Made by a program: the position numbers and the translations under genes | The notes under the pieces: model-generated | Told to the model about the DNA's origin: nothing | The model's input: only the letters and a program-made list of their open reading frames with translations | Database searches by the model: none | In this document: positions 36,882 to 53,273 of the stretch, one piece after another | Numbering within the stretch: position 1 is the stretch's first letter | How the letters are laid out: each line of letters starts with the position of its first letter | DNA from: Escherichia virus TH41 | Strand: one strand, 5' to 3' | Sequence record: MT446412.1 | DNA: 64,000 bases

Positions 36882-36911
36882 GTGTACAAACTCGTGGGGC
36901 CAGAGTATAAT
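36882..36911 (+). promoter_or_regulatory. Early promoter GTGTAC-N18-TATAAT with -10 inside inverted repeat GTGGGGCC/GGTCCCAC
   Basis: Read directly; ATG 36954. Confidence 0.6.
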
Positions 36912-44827: not shown

Positions 44828-45025
44828 ATGTTAGGTTTCCAAGCACGTGTAGTTGAAGAACATGACCAGCTGGTTTTGAAAATCAATGCTCTTGAAGAAT
44901 TTATTAAGGGCGGTGTTTTTGAAACTCTCGATGCTCGTCAACAAGGTCTTTTGATTGCCCAGTTAGATGCGATGGGCGCATATGCTCATATTCTGGCAAC
45001 TCGTATCTCTTATTTTGGTGAATAA
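44828..45025 (+). CDS. Hypothetical protein (65 aa)
   Basis: ATG preceded by GAGG. Confidence 0.5.
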   Translation: MLGFQARVVEEHDQLVLKINALEEFIKGGVFETLDARQQGLLIAQLDAMGAYAHILATRISYFGE

Positions 45026-45028
45026 ATT

Positions 45029-45349
45029 ATGATTAACTATATGAACGTTGGCGATGAATCTATTAATGAAATTCGGTTGCATGGTAATCATGTTGCGGAT
45101 ATTGTTTATTGTGTTGATTGTCATTATGCTTCTACAAAGTCAACTGGCCGGTTATATGCGAGAGACATCATTCTTGCAACGAAAGAAGAACTTCGTAGTC
45201 TGGACCATTCTACTCTAGCCGAAAGTGCCAGAATTTATTATGGCGTCGTTCATGTAGACAAAGTTTATATTGGCAGTGATTATCAAGAGCAAGCTGAGCA
45301 AAATTCTTTGGATATTGTCGAAAAATCCGATATGTATTTTAAAGGATGA
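45029..45349 (+). CDS. Hypothetical protein (106 aa)
   Basis: ORF track. Confidence 0.5.
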   Translation: MINYMNVGDESINEIRLHGNHVADIVYCVDCHYASTKSTGRLYARDIILATKEELRSLDHSTLAESARIYYGVVHVDKVYIGSDYQEQAEQNSLDIVEKSDMYFKG

Positions 45350-45353
45350 GCTG

Positions 45354-45947
45354 ATGATTCAGAAGAGTAAAACATGGGAGCATCTGAAAAAGATGCCCTC
45401 CTTTCTTTATACAAAGGAAGACTTAACCCCCGAATCCCTGCAAAAGATTGTAGATACAGCCAGGTATTCATTGCGTAAAGACCCGGGTCAGGACCGTGAG
45501 CAAGTCATGCAAAGATGTATGGTGGCTACAATGGCTGAACAAGCTATTGCTAAATGGACTTCAGGTTTTTTATGTGGCGGTGATGAAGATTACGATAATC
45601 CTTATTCCTTTGCATTTGATGTAGTTTCGAAGGAAGGGGTAAGAATCGAAGTCAAGACTCATCAGTCTGGTTCCAAATGGATATCCGTACATACTGGTCA
45701 CCAGGGTGATTATCCACATGGTTACGGGGTTAATCTTGGCCCTTTTATGCAGCACAAGCTTGCTGACCTTATGATTATGTTTAATGTAAAAGAGACTCTC
45801 AAAGGTTATAGATTTAAACCAAAATTCCTTGCTGGGCCTGGTGCTTTCGTTCCTGAGTCTGGTCTTGTGCAGAAATCACAAGGGGATGGCTGGTACCTCC
45901 GTTCTTGTTCAGAAGAAAAATTTCCCTATCACCGGTTTACAAGCTGA
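45354..45947 (+). CDS. Hypothetical protein (197 aa); size and position compatible with T4 denB
   Basis: ATG preceded by GGATGAG; no sequence-level recognition. Confidence 0.5.
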   Translation: MIQKSKTWEHLKKMPSFLYTKEDLTPESLQKIVDTARYSLRKDPGQDREQVMQRCMVATMAEQAIAKWTSGFLCGGDEDYDNPYSFAFDVVSKEGVRIEVKTHQSGSKWISVHTGHQGDYPHGYGVNLGPFMQHKLADLMIMFNVKETLKGYRFKPKFLAGPGAFVPESGLVQKSQGDGWYLRSCSEEKFPYHRFTS

Positions 45948-45964
45948 ACCAACTGTGTAATAAT
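45935..45964 (+). promoter_or_regulatory. Early promoter GTTTAC-N17-TAATAAT
   Basis: Inside 3' end of previous ORF; followed by RBS-containing hairpin. Confidence 0.4.
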
Positions 45965-45991
45965 GTCCTCATACCAACAAATGAGGACATT
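45962..45991 (+). promoter_or_regulatory. Perfect 11-bp stem-loop (AATGTCCTCAT/ATGAGGACATT) with the SD GAGGA in its 3' arm
   Basis: Read directly; ATG 45995 is 3 nt after the stem. Confidence 0.6.
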
Positions 45992-45994
45992 ATC

Positions 45995-46270
45995 ATGGAA
46001 CACGTTACTACTCACAACATCAAACAAATTCTTATCCAAGCACTCAAAAACAACAACATCAATTTTCCAACCCATGAAATTTTTGATGTAGCATTCAACG
46101 AAGTCCAGGGTCAAGTTGCATATTATGACGTTATCGTTTATCTTTCAGAATTTGAAGTCTACCACCTGACTGAAATTGCTTTCTATCTCTATCGTGGGAC
46201 TGCAGATTTTACTGGGGTCGTGAATGCAGTTGGCGCATATAAAGAAGTTAAAGAACAAATGCACAATTAA
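45995..46270 (+). CDS. Hypothetical protein (91 aa)
   Basis: ATG in frame within track ORF 45905..46270. Confidence 0.5.
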   Translation: MEHVTTHNIKQILIQALKNNNINFPTHEIFDVAFNEVQGQVAYYDVIVYLSEFEVYHLTEIAFYLYRGTADFTGVVNAVGAYKEVKEQMHN

Positions 46271-46280
46271 TTAAAAAGTA

Positions 46281-46310
46281 GTGTACATCAGTATGGAGTC
46301 TATGTATAAT
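46281..46310 (+). promoter_or_regulatory. Early promoter GTGTAC-N18-TATAAT
   Basis: Preceded by AAAAAGTA; followed by GATTCCATACTGAGTTACC; ATG 46345. Confidence 0.6.
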
Positions 46311-46344
46311 GATTCCATACTGAGTTACCAAACTGGAGAATAAA

Positions 46345-46500
46345 ATGAAACCTGCTCAATATGCAATGACTTTATACCTTGAAGTTAATGGCGATATTAC
46401 TGAATTTTTTAAATTAATGCAACAGCGCGGAAAAAGTTTTGCAGTTACTGAGCGTCAATTTTACGCTTGCCGTAAAAATACATACAATCGTTATGCGTGA
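46345..46500 (+). CDS. Hypothetical protein (51 aa)
   Basis: ATG after promoter and GGAGAATAAA; under track cutoff. Confidence 0.4.
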   Translation: MKPAQYAMTLYLEVNGDITEFFKLMQQRGKSFAVTERQFYACRKNTYNRYA

Positions 46501-46510
46501 GGAAAACAGA

Positions 46511-46777
46511 ATGGATATTAAATTATACTACGCCAAACACAAAGTTACAGGTATGGTTGTTGCTGCTATGTATGATGCGTCAGGTGATGGTGATGATATT
46601 ACTACAGAATTGTCTCTTTCTGAATGTAAATTTCTTCGCCCGCTAGTTGCCTCAAAGCGTGATTTAAAAAAGCTTATTGATGGAAAACTGGATAATGTTG
46701 ATGGCATAGATATTCTTTATGACCTTCGCACCGCATTGCACAGGGGTCTGATTGAAATAAAAGAGGTGATATTTTGA
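46511..46777 (+). CDS. Hypothetical protein (88 aa)
   Basis: ATG preceded by GAGGAAAACAGA; track start 46439 is upstream. Confidence 0.5.
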   Translation: MDIKLYYAKHKVTGMVVAAMYDASGDGDDITTELSLSECKFLRPLVASKRDLKKLIDGKLDNVDGIDILYDLRTALHRGLIEIKEVIF

Positions 46778-46867
46778 GCAGCAAAACCTGGTGTCTTATC
46801 TGGATGTTGTGTATCCCAGTAATTTGCGTTTGTTTTAGTTTATTATTAATGAAACTTGCATAAAAGA

Positions 46868-46896
46868 GTGTACATCTCCGGTGGTTGTAGTATAAT
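46868..46896 (+). promoter_or_regulatory. Early promoter GTGTAC-N17-TATAAT
   Basis: Leader CTATCAACTACTGGAGATGATT; ATG 46923. Confidence 0.55.
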
Positions 46897-46922
46897 GAAC
46901 CTATCAACTACTGGAGATGATT

Positions 46923-47039
46923 ATGAAAAAGTTACTTAAAGCCATTTGGAACATGTTTGTACTGTTTGTTGTCCTGAGCATTTTCCCAATTGTTTTTATG
47001 ATTGACCATGTACGCGTTTACTTTAACTATTTCTTTTGA
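46923..47039 (+). CDS. Hypothetical small membrane peptide (38 aa)
   Basis: Follows promoter and GGAG; hydrophobic; very short. Confidence 0.3.
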   Translation: MKKLLKAIWNMFVLFVVLSIFPIVFMIDHVRVYFNYFF

Positions 47040-47049
47040 GGATAATATT

Positions 47050-47256
47050 ATGAATTACAATTCACAATTTCAGAAATCTAATCGTCGCTTTGACTTTATG
47101 TTCAAGTTTATTGTGGCAATGATTATCCTGATTTTCATTGGTGCCATTGCAATGATTGGTTTCCAGCTCTGGATTGCTGCTGAAGTGTTCACACAAATCC
47201 AGGATAATGGTTTGAAGTCTGTTGTTGATGTAATTTGGAATGGTGCTAAGCAATGA
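47050..47256 (+). CDS. Hypothetical membrane protein (68 aa)
   Basis: ATG preceded by GAGGATAATATT; hydrophobic core. Confidence 0.45.
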   Translation: MNYNSQFQKSNRRFDFMFKFIVAMIILIFIGAIAMIGFQLWIAAEVFTQIQDNGLKSVVDVIWNGAKQ

Positions 47257-47498
47257 AACTTTTTAAAGACATTGCAGTTGGTGAAAAATTTGTCCTGGGT
47301 AATGGTCAACAACTGATTCGCATTTCGCCTTTAATGGATAACAGTGAGCGCCCTGTGCGTACTGAAAACTGTTTGGATTATCCTTTTTATCAGAAACGTT
47401 TTGCAATTGAAAATAATACTGAGTGCTTCACAGTTGATGAACTGATGGAATCATCAGAAGAAGTTGACTTGTGGGATGGCGCGGTAGATGTAGAATAG
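47253..47498 (+). CDS. Hypothetical protein (81 aa)
   Basis: ORF track; ATGA overlap. Confidence 0.5.
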   Translation: MKLFKDIAVGEKFVLGNGQQLIRISPLMDNSERPVRTENCLDYPFYQKRFAIENNTECFTVDELMESSEEVDLWDGAVDVE

Positions 47499-47527
47499 TG
47501 TACAAACTCATGGGAGCAGAGTATAAT
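47498..47527 (+). promoter_or_regulatory. Early promoter GTGTAC-N18-TATAAT with -10 flanked by imperfect inverted repeat
   Basis: Near-identical to cassettes at 36882 and 47910; ATG 47566. Confidence 0.6.
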
Positions 47528-47565
47528 GTTCCCGTGGATAATAAAATTTAATTGAGGAAAATATT

Positions 47566-47910
47566 ATGTCTAAAGTATTTTTTGGTAATCGCAACATTAT
47601 GTTCTTTAAACAGATTAGCATATCAGAAGCATTTGATTTAAGTTATTCAGGTGGTACAAAAGCTGTTAACCTTAAAAATTTGATGTCTGCAGAATTTGCA
47701 TTCTATCAGGACCCTGAAACTGGTTTCTATAAATTTATTAAGTTCCGCATGACTATGGACCGCGATTATCGCGATGTTTATTATACAAGTTATGAAAGTG
47801 TTGTGAATGCAATTCGTGAAGCTTATGGGTTGGATTCGTTGTCTCTTGACCGTCTGTATAATGCAAGCCTTTACACCAGTGGATTTATTTTAGAACAACT
47901 ACAAAAATAG
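47566..47910 (+). CDS. Hypothetical protein (114 aa)
   Basis: ATG preceded by GAGGAAAATATT. Confidence 0.55.
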   Translation: MSKVFFGNRNIMFFKQISISEAFDLSYSGGTKAVNLKNLMSAEFAFYQDPETGFYKFIKFRMTMDRDYRDVYYTSYESVVNAIREAYGLDSLSLDRLYNASLYTSGFILEQLQK

Positions 47911-47939
47911 TGTACAAACTCTTGGGGTCAGAGTATAAT
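47910..47939 (+). promoter_or_regulatory. Early promoter GTGTAC-N18-TATAAT with -10 inside perfect 8-bp inverted repeat TGGGGTCA/TGACCCCA
   Basis: Read directly; ATG 47984. Confidence 0.6.
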
Positions 47940-47983
47940 GACCCCACTGGAGCACAAAACTTTAACTTACTGAGGAAATTAAT

Positions 47984-48433
47984 ATGACTACTTACATGAC
48001 CCGTCGTGACGTACTGAATGCTGGTGCTACCACTGTTGCTTATATCCATAATGGTAATTATGTTGCCGGTCGCCCAACTAAAGAAGCTATCGCTCAACCA
48101 GGTTTTTATTTCGTGGTTAAAGGTGAAGGCGAATCACGTATTGTTGCTGCACGTTTTTATGTTGGTAACCAACGTTCACAACAAGGGTTTGACACTGTAT
48201 TAAGTCACATCCGCAAACAACGTTCACAATTGTCTCGCACAATGGCGAACAATGGTGTTATCTATGAAGTCCTGTTTGTTCCAGTTTCTAAAATGAAACC
48301 CCTGACAACTGGTTATGGTAAAGGTCAAATTGCGATGGCGTTCACTCGCTCACATAGTTCTGATTGCCAGACCCTTTCAGAAATGAATCGCATGCTTGCT
48401 GATAACTTTAAATTCATTCTGCAGAGCTATTAA
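47984..48433 (+). CDS. ndd: Nucleoid disruption protein Ndd
   Basis: 149 aa; blocks [52 protein letters not shown] match remembered T4 Ndd. Confidence 0.82.
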
Positions 48434-48434
48434 T

Positions 48435-48608
48435 ATGAGACATTTCTTTACAATGGGTTACCTATTTGTTTTAGCCCTATTTGTTATTACAGGAGCCTTT
48501 ATAGCCTTTGGTGCTCCATTTAATGATAAAGTTGCTGTTACTATGTGCTTTAGTGGTGGGTATATCTGTTTTGAACGCTTATGCAAAATGTGTGGTATAT
48601 ATGAGTAA
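48435..48608 (+). CDS. Hypothetical small membrane protein (57 aa)
   Basis: ATG 2 nt after ndd stop; hydrophobic. Confidence 0.35.
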
Positions 48609-48688
48609 TTTCCATAACGAACATGTGATGCAATGGCATCGTCATAATCTGAAATTAACCGGCGTCTTCGGACGTCCTTGAGGAAAAT

Positions 48689-48844
48689 ATGAATAAATTT
48701 GTTCATGGTGTAGCTTTTTTCTGCTGGTCATTTTTATTTGTTGGAACATTAATAACTGGTGAAACTTCAGTATTTCTGCAGTCAACAGCTCAAGGTGTAT
48801 TAGCAGTTTTATCACTATTTAAATTATTGGATAAAAATGATTAA
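48689..48844 (+). CDS. Small membrane protein (51 aa), Ac-like by size and position
   Basis: ATG preceded by GAGGAAAAT; hydrophobic; upstream of gene 52 where T4 has ac. Confidence 0.35.
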   Translation: MNKFVHGVAFFCWSFLFVGTLITGETSVFLQSTAQGVLAVLSLFKLLDKND

Positions 48845-48977
48845 GAAAATCCTGGGCTACTCGTTAGCCCTTGCTGCCTTATTGGTGGCGCTGTATTATG
48901 GAGTTGTATTTGCATTAGTGCAGGTTGTGCTTTTTATTTCTGATGCTATAATGGCAGTACATTCGTTAATCTGGTAA
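48837..48977 (+). CDS. Hypothetical small membrane peptide (46 aa)
   Basis: Overlapping start; hydrophobic; directly upstream of gene 52. Confidence 0.3.
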   Translation: MIKKILGYSLALAALLVALYYGVVFALVQVVLFISDAIMAVHSLIW

Positions 48978-48985
48978 GGTGATAT

Positions 48986-50365
48986 ATGTCTGACGTTTTA
49001 AGTATGATGTCCAAACAGTTCAGTGATTCTATGGGGACCCTTAACCCACGCAGTCTAAAAGACATTATTGACGTGGAAGCATTGTCATATGCTATCTACA
49101 CTGTGGAAGGTCGTGCCATTCCAAACATGATTGATGGTTTTAAACCAGTTCACAGATTTGTTATGGCGAGAGCATTAGACCTGGCTCGTGGTGATAAGAA
49201 TAAATTCCATAAGGTTGCATCCATTGCAGGTGGCGTAGCTGATTATGGTTATCACCATGGCGAAGCATCAGCGGAAGAAGCAACTTCTGGTTTGGTCGCA
49301 ACATATAAAAATGAATATCCTATGTTTGATGGGCAAGGTAACTTTGGTTCCAGAATGGTTCCAGAAGCATCATCAGCTCGTTATGTATTCGCAAGGGTTT
49401 CAAAGAACTTTTACAACTTGTTTAAGGATACAGAATATGCTCCGGTCCATCCTGATGAAGAACATAAGCCTCCTGCTTTTTATCTTCCTGTTATTCCTAC
49501 TGTATTACTTAACGCCACTTCTGGGATTGCTGTTGGCTTCGCTACTGATATCCTTCCTCATTCGTTCCAGGACGTCAAGGAAGCTGTTAAAGCTATCGTG
49601 GAAGGTCGTGAGCCGGTTGCTCCGAAAGTAAAATATCCAGAATTCCGTGGTAAAGTTGTTGAGCTGGAAGAGCCTGGTAAGTATGAACTTCACGGCACAT
49701 ACAAAATGACCTCAAGGACTCAAATGGAAATTACTGAAATCCCGGTCCAATGGAACCTGGAAAAATATACAAGTAAAATCCTGGACCCACTGGAAGAGAA
49801 AGGTTTTATCACCTGGAAAGATAACTGCGGCGAGCATGGTTTTGGGTTTAAGATTAAATTCCGCAAAGAATACAAGTTGGATGGCACTGAAGAAGAGAAT
49901 CATGAGAAAATCATGAAAGACTTTGGTCTGATTGAGAAACTCTCCCAGAACTTAACTGTGCTTAATCACAAAGGCAAATTAGCTGAATACACCAACACGC
50001 TTGACCTGATTCGCGATTTCGTTGATGTCCGTAAGACCTATGTTCAAGTGCGAATTGACAGTAAGATTAAAGAAACTGAAGCGGCATTTAAACTGGCCCG
50101 GGCAAAAGTCTTCTTTATTAAAGAAGTGATTGATGGTAAGGTTGTTATCCAGGGGAAACCTCGTAAGAAGTTGATTGAGGAACTCCAGGCGAGTGAAATA
50201 TATGGCGATTATGCAGAGAAGTTAGTGGCGATGAACATCTACCATATGACCTCTGATGAAGCCAAGAAGCTTGCAGACGAAGCAAAGGCTAAGAAAGCTG
50301 AGCATGAGTACTGGAAGACAACTGATGTTAAAACTGAATACCTTAATGATTTGGAGGCTCTATGA
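48986..50365 (+). CDS. 52: DNA topoisomerase II medium subunit gp52 (GyrA-like)
   Basis: 459 aa; RAIPNMIDGFKPVHRFVM breakage-reunion motif. Confidence 0.92.
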   Translation: MSDVLSMMSKQFSDSMGTLNPRSLKDIIDVEALSYAIYTVEGRAIPNMIDGFKPVHRFVMARALDLARGDKNKFHKVASIAGGVADYGYHHGEASAEEATSGLVATYKNEYPMFDGQGNFGSRMVPEASSARYVFARVSKNFYNLFKDTEYAPVHPDEEHKPPAFYLPVIPTVLLNATSGIAVGFATDILPHSFQDVKEAVKAIVEGREPVAPKVKYPEFRGKVVELEEPGKYELHGTYKMTSRTQMEITEIPVQWNLEKYTSKILDPLEEKGFITWKDNCGEHGFGFKIKFRKEYKLDGTEEENHEKIMKDFGLIEKLSQNLTVLNHKGKLAEYTNTLDLIRDFVDVRKTYVQVRIDSKIKETEAAFKLARAKVFFIKEVIDGKVVIQGKPRKKLIEELQASEIYGDYAEKLVAMNIYHMTSDEAKKLADEAKAKKAEHEYWKTTDVKTEYLNDLEAL

Positions 50366-50457
50366 GTTTTGGAGTTGAGTTTGCATTGCTTTGTATTTTT
50401 GCGGCAATCGCAGGTGTGATTGTTGGTATGTTTATTGGCAATAAGATAGATAAAGAC

Positions 50458-50480
50458 TAGGACCCTTCGGGGTCCTTTTT
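50458..50480 (+). terminator. Rho-independent terminator (GGACCC-TTCG-GGGTCC + T5)
   Basis: 6-bp stem, UUCG loop, T-run. Confidence 0.75.
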
Positions 50481-50494
50481 ATTTTAAAAAAGTA

Positions 50495-50524
50495 GTGTAC
50501 AAGTCCCTTGACCTGATGCATAAT
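50495..50524 (+). promoter_or_regulatory. Early promoter GTGTAC-N18-CATAAT
   Basis: Preceded by AAAAAAGTA; followed by GATTCCATACTGAGTTACAC; ATG 50574. Confidence 0.6.
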
Positions 50525-50573
50525 GATTCCATACTGAGTTACACAATGAATCACAAAAACTTTGGAGAATAAA

Positions 50574-50789
50574 ATGTTTACTGCACAACAGAATGAAGGT
50601 CAAGAATACATTAACGCTAAATTCAAATCTAATAAAGAAGCTTGCTATTACTACTTTGACATGTTCAAACTGGCAAACTCTAAAGAAGAACGTAAACAAG
50701 CGATTGATGTGATTGTTTCTACTTCCCATATGAAACGTACTGTGGTACAATCATATGCATCAAATTATATGAAATCTATTAAGGGATAA
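50574..50789 (+). CDS. Hypothetical protein (71 aa)
   Basis: ATG preceded by GGAGAATAAA. Confidence 0.5.
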   Translation: MFTAQQNEGQEYINAKFKSNKEACYYYFDMFKLANSKEERKQAIDVIVSTSHMKRTVVQSYASNYMKSIKG

Positions 50790-50791
50790 TT

Positions 50792-51400
50792 GTGAACAAG
50801 TTAAATTATATCGTTAAATGCTCCCAGAATGCTCTACATGAGACTGATGTTAATGCTCTGGTGTTTGTATACAAAAACAACTTCGTGCGTCCTGAGGTTG
50901 TTTTAGGCCAGCAGAACACGTCAATTGATAGCGTGCAGACATTGTTGAATAACAACTATGTTGAAGCTTCTGGTGATGGTTTGATGGTTACAGAAAAAGG
51001 TGTTGACCTTATTCTGGATGCAGCTGAACTTTGGGCAAATGAAAATAATCCTGACCTTCTGGAAGTGAAGAAGACAAGAACAAAACGCGGTGTGACTGAT
51101 GAAATGGAAGCGACTGCAGAATATATCAAAGAGCAATTGTTGTCTATTGGTATTGACTTTAAGAGCATTTCAGAAGACCGCAGCAATCTGATTGTGAAGT
51201 TCAAGCGTGTCAAGACATTAAAACAGATTGATGTTCGTCGTGATGGTCAGATTCGCGTGCATGCGTATAATACTGAACAAAAGATAGTAAAACAGTTTAC
51301 AGACGTGGGATTTAGCGTTAAAGTAGGTGGATTGAATACCTACATTGACAATCATATGTCAACTGAAAACATTCAACATGTTATTAACATCTTAAAGTGA
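50792..51400 (+). CDS. motA: Middle transcription activator MotA
   Basis: 202 aa, GTG start; blocks SGDGLMVTEKGVDLI and KQFTDVGFSVKV match remembered T4 MotA. Confidence 0.75.
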   Translation: MNKLNYIVKCSQNALHETDVNALVFVYKNNFVRPEVVLGQQNTSIDSVQTLLNNNYVEASGDGLMVTEKGVDLILDAAELWANENNPDLLEVKKTRTKRGVTDEMEATAEYIKEQLLSIGIDFKSISEDRSNLIVKFKRVKTLKQIDVRRDGQIRVHAYNTEQKIVKQFTDVGFSVKVGGLNTYIDNHMSTENIQHVINILK

Positions 51401-51407
51401 GGAAATT

Positions 51408-51740
51408 ATGAATAAGCTGAATATTGTTAATGAATTGCGTGCTTGTGTAGAACCCACTCAAGAGGGTTGGGATGTTTGGTATCATGGCGCTTACCTTGGG
51501 ACTATTGTCAAGGTCAAAGCTGGTCAGTATCTTATCCATCGCCAGGATGATGCAGTAGCTCCATTTGGTGCTCGCAAGAACTTCATGGCGGCGATTGGTG
51601 CCTTTGTTCCAGCAGCATATGAAGTCTATAAAGCTGACTATAAAGAATACCTGGAATCACAACCAGTTATTCGCTCAATTGGTGTTAATAAAGCTCAACA
51701 GAAAAGTCTGTGGCAACGTGTTAAAGGTTGGTTCAAATGA
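51408..51740 (+). CDS. Hypothetical protein (110 aa)
   Basis: ATG preceded by GTGAGGAAATT. Confidence 0.5.
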   Translation: MNKLNIVNELRACVEPTQEGWDVWYHGAYLGTIVKVKAGQYLIHRQDDAVAPFGARKNFMAAIGAFVPAAYEVYKADYKEYLESQPVIRSIGVNKAQQKSLWQRVKGWFK

Positions 51741-52075
51741 TTCCTATGGAACTAAATTGGGATGGCGAAGGTCATTCCCTTAAATTGATTGAAGAACAAC
51801 GTAACGCTTGGGATGAGCGCTGTGCCCTGGTGAATGGTATTAAGAAAACTTATCAACTTAACCTCCAGATTGATAATGTTACTCTTGAATTTGGTATGCA
51901 GCTATTGCGATTTCTTGAGCTTATTTTTACGGAAAAAGTGAATATAACTTCGTATGGCGAAGGCAAAACAGTTGATATTAAATTATCATCCTATTATAAA
52001 GGTGATTTAATTGAAACCGCCGCTAAAATTCAAGAATTCGCTAAAGATAACGGTTATAAGGTGATTTTCAAATGA
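51737..52075 (+). CDS. Hypothetical protein (112 aa)
   Basis: ATGA overlap; track start 51728 is TTG. Confidence 0.5.
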
Positions 52076-53050: not shown

Positions 53051-53215
53051 ATGAGCCATAACTTAGAGAACACCATCACCGGTCAACGTACGCACGAGCA
53101 GGCTTGCTTTGAGGAATTCCTTGGAGCTGATTTTAAGTTCCAGGAACCAGTTGAACAGATGTATCAGGAATATGTTGTACAGATGGAAAATCATGTGTAC
53201 AACCCAGAGGAATAA
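53051..53215 (+). CDS. Hypothetical protein (54 aa)
   Basis: ATG preceded by GGGAATCATT; under track cutoff. Confidence 0.35.
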   Translation: MSHNLENTITGQRTHEQACFEEFLGADFKFQEPVEQMYQEYVVQMENHVYNPEE

Positions 53216-53273
53216 TAGTATAATACCCTTACTGAATAATTGAATGTCTTATTGAATACTTGAGTAAATTAAA

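Follow-up and report, generated by a model that had tools for sequence, protein, structure and literature searches.

The stretch of DNA analysed here (the window) comprises 64,000 nt of Escherichia virus TH41, a T4-like coliphage belonging to the genus Gaprivervirus. Five small genes are found around its topoisomerase gene 52, four between ndd and gene 52 and one directly behind the latter, and the gene order ndd, ORF57, stp, ac, 52.1, 52, orf32, all on the plus strand, is preceded by a promoter and followed by an intrinsic terminator:

47910..47939, plus strand: early-type promoter, GTGTACAA ... TATAAT, a 10/12 match to the sigma-70 consensus
47984..48433, plus strand: ndd, nucleoid disruption protein, 149 aa (PF06591, 230.8 bits; phrog_1102, E 2e-59)
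48435..48608, plus strand: ORF57, 57-aa predicted membrane protein (phrog_5941, E 1e-22 over residues 1-57 of 57)
48601..48681, plus strand: stp, 26-aa soluble peptide, orthologue of T4 Stp (PF08133, 52.5 bits, cut-off 25; phrog_6763, E 2e-18)
48689..48844, plus strand: ac, 51-aa orthologue of T4 Ac (phrog_2501, E 2.9e-23 over residues 1-49 of 51)
48837..48977, plus strand: 52.1, 46-aa hydrophobic protein, orthologue of T4 gp52.1 (DUF7396; PF24129, 71.8 bits, cut-off 27, E 5e-20, over residues 1-46 of 46; phrog_3595, E 2e-23)
48986..50365, plus strand: gene 52, topoisomerase II medium subunit, 459 aa (PF00521, 260 bits; phrog_551, E 9e-202)
50362..50460, plus strand: orf32, 32-aa predicted single-helix membrane peptide (phrog_16377, E 2e-9)
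50459..50484, plus strand: intrinsic terminator by sequence match, hairpin AGGACCC-TTCG-GGGTCCT (50459-50476) followed by TTTTTATTTT

Neighbouring genes either overlap or are spaced by 1-8 nt (junctions TAAtATG, ATGAGTAA, ATGATTAA, and ATGA). The initial annotation had listed the ORFs of 57, 51, and 46 aa as a run of three directly upstream of gene 52, together with the 32-aa ORF behind it, and the ORF list and the sequence confirm all four at the positions given above. The run, however, consists of four genes, and the apparent 80-nt gap between the first two ORFs holds stp. In T4 the order is ndd-stp-ac-52.1-52-motA.1-motA, so the comparison with the T4 ac and stp position that had been made for the three ORFs named the right neighbourhood, and the second ORF is ac, but none of the three is stp and T4 52.1 had not been mentioned. 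The flanking genes are clear T4 orthologues as well, with Ndd identical to T4 Ndd at 92 of 148 positions and gp52 identical to T4 gp52 at 307 of 441.

The 801 bases around the locus are 99.1% identical to those of Escherichia phages UPEC01 (MW233709; classified in Gaprivervirus) and ECML-359, both of which are T4-like. Of the 231 records that match, only 12 extend over 80% or more of this stretch, and most Gaprivervirus genomes, namely VR7, VR20, VR25, VR26, and SP18, match it over 54-64%, indicating that the interval is mosaic even inside the genus.

Since this AT-rich locus is crowded with chance ORFs, numerous on both strands in the range of 20-80 aa, the existence of an ORF alone is no proof of a gene. 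It could thus be argued that the small ORFs arose by chance between genes in AT-rich DNA and owe their conservation to regulatory RNA or DNA signals, and their T4 orthologues, too, lack peptide detection: the protein class of T4 52.1, Ac, Stp, and MotA.1 is given as NA (PMC9697503 supplementary file 4), which we take to mean that mass spectrometry did not detect them. We regard this explanation as extremely improbable. Purifying selection was found in every annotated frame (pN/pS 0.12-0.6), synonymous differences exceeding non-synonymous ones there and not in the alternative frames; in the 57-aa family, amino acids are conserved from end to end even where identity falls to 32%, and the length of 57 aa is preserved; and genetics has defined protein phenotypes for T4 ac and stp. 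Moreover, the minus-strand ORFs at 48458-48706, 48642-48815, and 48946-49065 match no PHROG family, and an Rfam scan of 45000-52000 returned no family above the gathering threshold. Hence, the suspicion of the initial annotation that real small peptide genes lie here is well founded: judging from full-length matches to phage families and from pN<pS in the annotated frames but not the alternative ones, the 57-, 51-, 46-, and 32-aa ORFs are genes rather than chance ORFs, and all five small genes are under purifying selection.

The products of these four ORFs are hydrophobic, as had been noted (GRAVY 0.8-1.8). A single helix for each, which had also been claimed, agrees with the AlphaFold2 model of gp52.1, a 44-residue helix (residues 2-45, pLDDT 96), whereas ORF57 is modelled as a helical hairpin (H2-24 and H31-52, turn at a conserved G-x-P, mean pLDDT 81, 21-sequence alignment) and T4 Ac was predicted to form two short helices joined at D26-A27 (bioRxiv 10.1101/2025.06.30.662393). 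The gp52.1 helix exceeds the thickness of a bilayer, so the monomer model does not settle topology, and these monomer models, built from alignments of 9 and 21 sequences, do not distinguish a long single helix from a bilayer hairpin; membrane insertion and topology are accordingly given as predictions throughout. As for the Shine-Dalgarno (SD) sequences, described earlier as good, strong ones precede only ac (GAGGA) and orf32 (GGAGG). Those of ORF57, stp, and 52.1 are weak, and each of these genes starts 1 nt after the preceding stop codon or overlaps it; weak SDs in three of the five small genes together with this stop/start contact make translational coupling to the upstream gene likely.

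The gene ORF57, whose ATG lies 1 nt past the ndd stop codon, has full-length (1-57) tblastn matches in 221 phage records, with identities from 100% down to 32%, which belong to T4-like phages of Escherichia, Shigella, Klebsiella, Raoultella, Serratia, Pectobacterium, Erwinia, and Citrobacter. In all 11 relatives that were read, the homologue (57-61 aa) lies at most 2 nt from the ndd stop or overlaps it, and ndd also adjoins the homologue in many of the listed annotations among the tblastn records. ORF57 occupies the same post-ndd slot as phrog_5941, a family of unnamed 57-aa proteins from T4-like phages of Klebsiella, Serratia, Pectobacterium, and Citrobacter and from some coliphages, and it shares the conserved elements of that family, the GxP turn and the F-E-R ... 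G-V motif; it is a family member and nothing beyond. Across the family, G26, E47, R48, and G54 are conserved, and M7, Y9, G20, P28, and F46 nearly so. A metal-binding or disulfide motif formed by the tail cysteines C38, C45, C50, and C53 was considered and dropped, because these cysteines vary across the family.

When 1.84 billion cluster representatives were searched exhaustively with HMMER, only 16 matched the ORF57 family, 15 of them of 47-61 aa, while the last match is weak, fragmentary, and inside a 922-aa protein. Word-indexed protein searches had given 4 and then 21 matches, and since the exhaustive search added only about nine clusters, the family is truly small and, as far as these searches reach, lineage-restricted. 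No model for ORF57 is present in Pfam or NCBIfam, a profile search found no relative in the PDB, and a Foldseek search of BFVD with the ORF57 model returned only family members at probability 1.00 (ranks 1-3; E 6e-4 to 4e-2). ORF57 was also compared with the small T4 proteins from which it might have diverged (ndd.1-ndd.6, ac, 52.1, and motA.1), but local alignment scores of just 13-30 led us to reject such a descent, and ORF57 has no T4 counterpart.

The reading frame of ORF57 has to be defended against a different gene model in the closest GenBank record. UPEC01 is annotated with a 159-nt CDS of 52 aa in the stp frame, corresponding to window 48523-48681, and if this were correct, ORF57 would be no gene and the real product would be a longer, membrane-anchored form of Stp with extra N-terminal residues, 52-57 aa in all (from 48523 or 48508 to 48681). 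In the window the stp frame does stay open as far upstream as 48508, and the added residues are hydrophobic, but by our own estimate 26 codons in a row are free of stops with a probability of about 0.3, so the open frame is unremarkable, and no SD is evident in the sequence before 48523. In dhaeg, Solly, and IME341, stop codons interrupt this frame between the 48523-type ATG and the stp ATG; the Stp profile matches only residues 27-51, i.e., the last 25, of the extended CDS; and VR7 has an identical 26-aa Stp directly after ndd, starting 1 nt past the ndd stop and free of any extension. Selection decides the same way. All pairs of 12 sequences gave a mean pN/pS of 0.34/0.70 (ratio 0.49) in the ORF57 frame, while the two alternative frames over the same 12 sequences gave 0.43/0.40 and 0.45/0.34 (ratios 1.06 and 1.32), the extended-Stp frame being the one at about 1.06. 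The extended Stp was therefore rejected as very improbable, the 52-aa CDS of UPEC01 being an annotation error, as shown by the upstream stops in relatives, the partial Stp match, and the position of Stp in VR7. Likewise, the minus-strand CDS annotated in CkP1 over its ORF57 homologue is contradicted by the pN/pS pattern.

With ORF57 taken as the coding frame, alignment of the window with VR7, Solly, and T4 shows it to be a module of exactly 166 nt, either present or absent, that separates the ndd stop from the stp ATG. At the module edges the window reads ...GCTATTAAT|ATGAGACAT...GGTATAT|ATGAGTAATTTCC, and VR7, which has no ORF57 module, reads ...GCTATTAAT|ATGAGTAATTTCC at the same site; these edges indicate an indel bounded by a repeated ATGAG. 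ORF57 and stp occur together in the window, dhaeg, Solly, and IME341; ORF57 is found without stp in the Klebsiella, Serratia, Pectobacterium, and Citrobacter phages and in EcS1, and stp without ORF57 in T4 and VR7. Because each occurs without the other, the two are independent genes.

The constant vicinity of ndd raises the question of whether ORF57, instead of acting on the envelope independently, works specifically with Ndd, for example as a membrane anchor or a modulator of the Ndd-driven move of the nucleoid to the cell periphery. That ORF57 starts no more than 2 nt from the ndd stop, or overlaps it, in the window and in 11/11 relatives fits translational coupling, and the T4 record carries a note on ndd that it binds host DNA to the membrane. 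However, ndd occurs without ORF57 in T4 and VR7, from which it follows that Ndd does not need ORF57, and within a single genus the ORF57 module is gained and lost on its own, with ndd staying nearly identical. A partnership with Ndd was thus considered unlikely.

The gene stp encodes a peptide of 26 aa, as in T4, and its ATG overlaps the ORF57 stop (ATGAGTAA; 8-nt overlap between the genes). It lies downstream of ndd in both phages, but T4 stp overlaps the ndd stop, whereas the window stp is set apart from ndd by ORF57. T4 Stp has been reported to inhibit type Ic restriction enzymes (EcoprrI and EcoR124I), which in prr+ hosts unmasks the PrrC tRNA-Lys anticodon nuclease, the damage being repaired by T4 Pnk and Rnl1, and the N-proximal 18 residues of Stp have been implicated in EcoprrI interaction and activity (PMC3014915). 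The window Stp is identical to T4 Stp at 20 of 26 positions, with the first 11 residues all kept and 15 of the 18 N-proximal residues as in T4 (F12W, Y13H, and N15H differ). Compared with T4 Stp it carries W12, H13, H15, L19, T20, and P26, all in common with VR7, whose Stp is the same protein (4 synonymous and 0 non-synonymous differences). Against T4, pN is 0.145 and pS 0.48 (ratio 0.30).

The comparison with T4 Ac, which the initial annotation had proposed, identifies the second ORF as the orthologue of this protein, annotated in T4 as an acridine resistance protein and likewise of 51 aa (BLASTP E 3e-8, 38% identity; 22/53 in the alignment; about 38-45% overall). According to previous studies, loss of Ac renders T4 resistant to acriflavine, and E. 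coli becomes more sensitive to acriflavine and ampicillin when it expresses Ac, an effect abolished by G38R (bioRxiv 10.1101/2025.06.30.662393; PMC13250531); the G38R change in T4 Ac in turn confers acriflavine resistance (bioRxiv 10.1101/2025.06.30.662393). Blockage of AcrAB-TolC efflux by Ac is a proposal made by the authors of a single preprint (bioRxiv 10.1101/2025.06.30.662393). The slot of ac between stp and 52.1, with an 8-nt overlap with 52.1, is the same in the window and in T4 (ac at 165342-165497, 52.1 ending at 165349), and an SVFxQxxAQG core is common to both proteins; AQG is kept in the window (G36, the equivalent of T4 G38), T4, Solly, KP179, KMI13, and EcS1. Versus five homologues, pN is about 0.38 and pS about 0.65 (ratio about 0.58). 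The N-terminal helix has strongly diverged from that of T4 Ac, and at roughly 40% identity the acriflavine phenotype could differ. E. coli AcrZ, a 49-aa AcrB-binding small membrane protein, offers a functional analogy only, that of an inner-membrane peptide of about 50 aa with an action on AcrAB-TolC, as suggested for Ac. AcrZ supports efflux and Ac is proposed to block it, and a comparison of the window Ac with AcrZ gives no detectable sequence similarity.

The third ORF of the run, 52.1, is essentially no different from its T4 counterpart, having the same 46 aa in the same slot with 40/46 residues identical (87%), and a 46-aa ORF immediately upstream of gene 52 was found in the window, in T4, and across the 10 phages compared. 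It is the slowest-evolving gene of the stretch: pN is 0.067 and pS 0.54 against T4 (ratio 0.12), compared with ratios of 0.27 for gp52 (70% identity) and 0.34 for Ndd (62%). For Ac, Stp, and gp52.1, no NCBIfam models were found.

The gene orf32, whose ATG overlaps the gene 52 stop (ATGA), was found in 81 phage records of Gaprivervirus and Dhakavirus. In JS98 and VR5 it follows gene 52 immediately, and most of the rows listed place it beneath the gene 52 annotation or beside it; its pN/pS is 0.24/0.78 against JS98 and 0.23/0.92 against VR5 (both Dhakavirus; ratios 0.25-0.31). In the window, JS98, and VR5 alike, the ATG sits on the gene 52 stop and a hairpin with a T-run follows directly. T4 motA.1 (49 aa) has the same layout, an ATGA overlap with the gene 52 stop and then a terminator, yet MotA.1 belongs to phrog_3487 rather than phrog_16377 and is 49 rather than 32 aa long. 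Homology to MotA.1 was rejected given the different PHROG and 10/49 identical residues in a global alignment; orf32 is thus, by position and sequence comparison, a positional analogue of T4 motA.1 that is unrelated to it in sequence.

These genes share a set of transcription signals, which are consensus matches. The -10 element of the promoter at 47910-47939 lies inside an inverted repeat (GGGGTC...GACCCC) just upstream of ndd, and the extended promoter pattern occurs 4 times in the 64,000-nt window against 0.01 expected. This promoter is likely the start of the ndd-to-orf32 transcription unit. At the other end, the terminator and the orf32 stop codon have 2 nt in common, and a small ORF followed by a hairpin and a T-run was also found in JS98, VR5, and T4 (after motA.1). 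The transcripts of T4 52.1, ac, stp, and motA.1 were classed as early (PMC9697503 supplementary file 4). The locus is therefore very probably the tail of a T4-type early transcription unit, from the promoter to the hairpin at 50459-50476 and comprising ndd, ORF57, stp, ac, 52.1, 52, and orf32.

Functions are known or have been proposed for only two of the five small proteins, Stp and Ac, both from work on T4. As we infer in part from the T4 literature, ORF57, Ac, gp52.1, and orf32 would enter the inner membrane of the host in the first minutes after infection and there serve as small proteins that modify those of the host envelope. If the window proteins behave as in T4, Ac would make infected cells accumulate acridines, possibly through the proposed block of AcrAB-TolC efflux, and soluble Stp would inhibit type Ic restriction and thereby unmask PrrC in prr+ hosts. 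As a working guess, ORF57, gp52.1, and orf32 might each dock helix-to-helix onto a host inner-membrane complex, similar to what was proposed for Ac. The T4 deletion from gp52.1 to rIIB (GT7-type) is viable (PMC9712115), which suggests that the small genes are accessory, contributing to host range or fitness, and not essential.

A more specific reading is speculative, and we think it doubtful. ORF57 could be a two-helix inner-membrane effector, coupled to ndd in translation and aimed at a specific host membrane complex or a membrane-linked defence, and gp52.1 could have a conserved, truly important host target despite being dispensable in the laboratory. If this were true of ORF57, host-range selection would lie behind the repeated appearance and disappearance of the exact 166-nt module in a single genus.

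The gene neighbourhood is of the T4 type, ordinary and described before except for the uncharacterised 57-aa family, and it is mostly of little consequence, being the textbook ndd-stp-ac-52.1-52 arrangement of T4 in a sequenced relative. The remark that such peptides are easily missed by annotation was borne out, since ORF57 is absent from the annotation of ECML-359 and replaced by the 52-aa stp-frame CDS in UPEC01, stp is unannotated in dhaeg and IME341, and the 32-aa ORF is unannotated in SP18, VR20, and VR25. The annotation of the closest public genomes is thus wrong or incomplete here, and pipelines for T4-like phages should add ORF57, stp, and orf32. Besides this need for correction, what goes beyond the ordinary are three conserved small predicted membrane proteins, ORF57, gp52.1, and orf32, which are uncharacterised, gp52.1 being under unusually strong constraint; as they adjoin Ac and Stp, two proteins engaged in interplay with the host envelope and host defence, they would be reasonable and inexpensive targets for a deletion and host-range screen.

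The gene content between stp and 52.1 is polymorphic among phages, which was seen when the window was compared with the loci of VR7, dhaeg, and EcS1 over the following regions:

48689-48844, stp-52.1 slot in the window
L014:1422-1589, the slot in the VR7 locus
L003:1455-1619, the slot in the dhaeg locus
L008:1371-1669, the slot in the EcS1 locus

Ac (phrog_2501) occupies this slot in the window, T4, Solly, and KP179, while phrog_9347, a membrane protein of 46-55 aa that is unrelated to Ac, is found there in VR7, dhaeg, IME341, Klebsiella phage EI, and Serratia phage CHI14, and EcS1 carries both together. As well, the 799-nt query matched Escherichia virus TH40 (MT446411.1, 40509-41569) as two pieces across 1061 nt; therefore, about 260 extra bases are present somewhere within its ndd-52 interval, which possibly represent another small-gene module.

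The adjacent gp52.1 (48837-48977) has a pN/pS of 0.12 and 87% identity to T4, and is thus more constrained than either the neighbouring gene 52 (0.27 and 70%) or ndd (0.34 and 62%). Despite this constraint, a viable T4 deletion spans 52.1.

Another run of small hydrophobic ORFs, the counterpart of the T4 ndd.x cluster, lies upstream of ndd (46774-47498):

46774-46863, ndd.6-like ORF, TTG start
46917-47039, ndd.4-like ORF, phrog_3098
47050-47256, ndd.2a-like ORF, phrog_2401
47253-47498, ndd.1-like ORF

These ORFs and the run at 48435-48977, noticed in the initial annotation, belong to one larger membrane-protein gene cluster, of which the latter run forms the downstream end. Further downstream, an ORF is located between the terminator that follows orf32 and motA (50792-51400), and no gene between motA.1 and motA was found in the T4 annotation table:

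50574-50789, 71-aa ORF, phrog_17275 (E 8e-53)

Several public calls at ORF57 (the phrog_5941 gene after ndd) and stp are annotation errors. In UPEC01 (L001:2724-2882), a 52-aa CDS called in the stp frame replaces both genes, and in CkP1 (L010:1182-1379, minus strand) the annotated CDS covers the ORF57 homologue, while stp is left without annotation in dhaeg (L003) and IME341 (L013), around 1367-1444.

Finally, a pattern search of the window for GTGTACAA-N-TATAAT, an early-promoter cassette, returned four exact matches against 0.01 expected, and looser copies occur near 46282, 46869, and 50496:

36882-36911, exact match
47498-47527, exact match
47910-47939, exact match
53195-53224, exact match

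In the 47910 cassette, the copy whose sequence was read, an inverted repeat encloses the -10 element, and the spacer is largely common to the copies at 36882 and 47498. These cassettes resemble the promoter-plus-stem-loop cassettes of T4-type phages, which are thought to drive modular shuffling.
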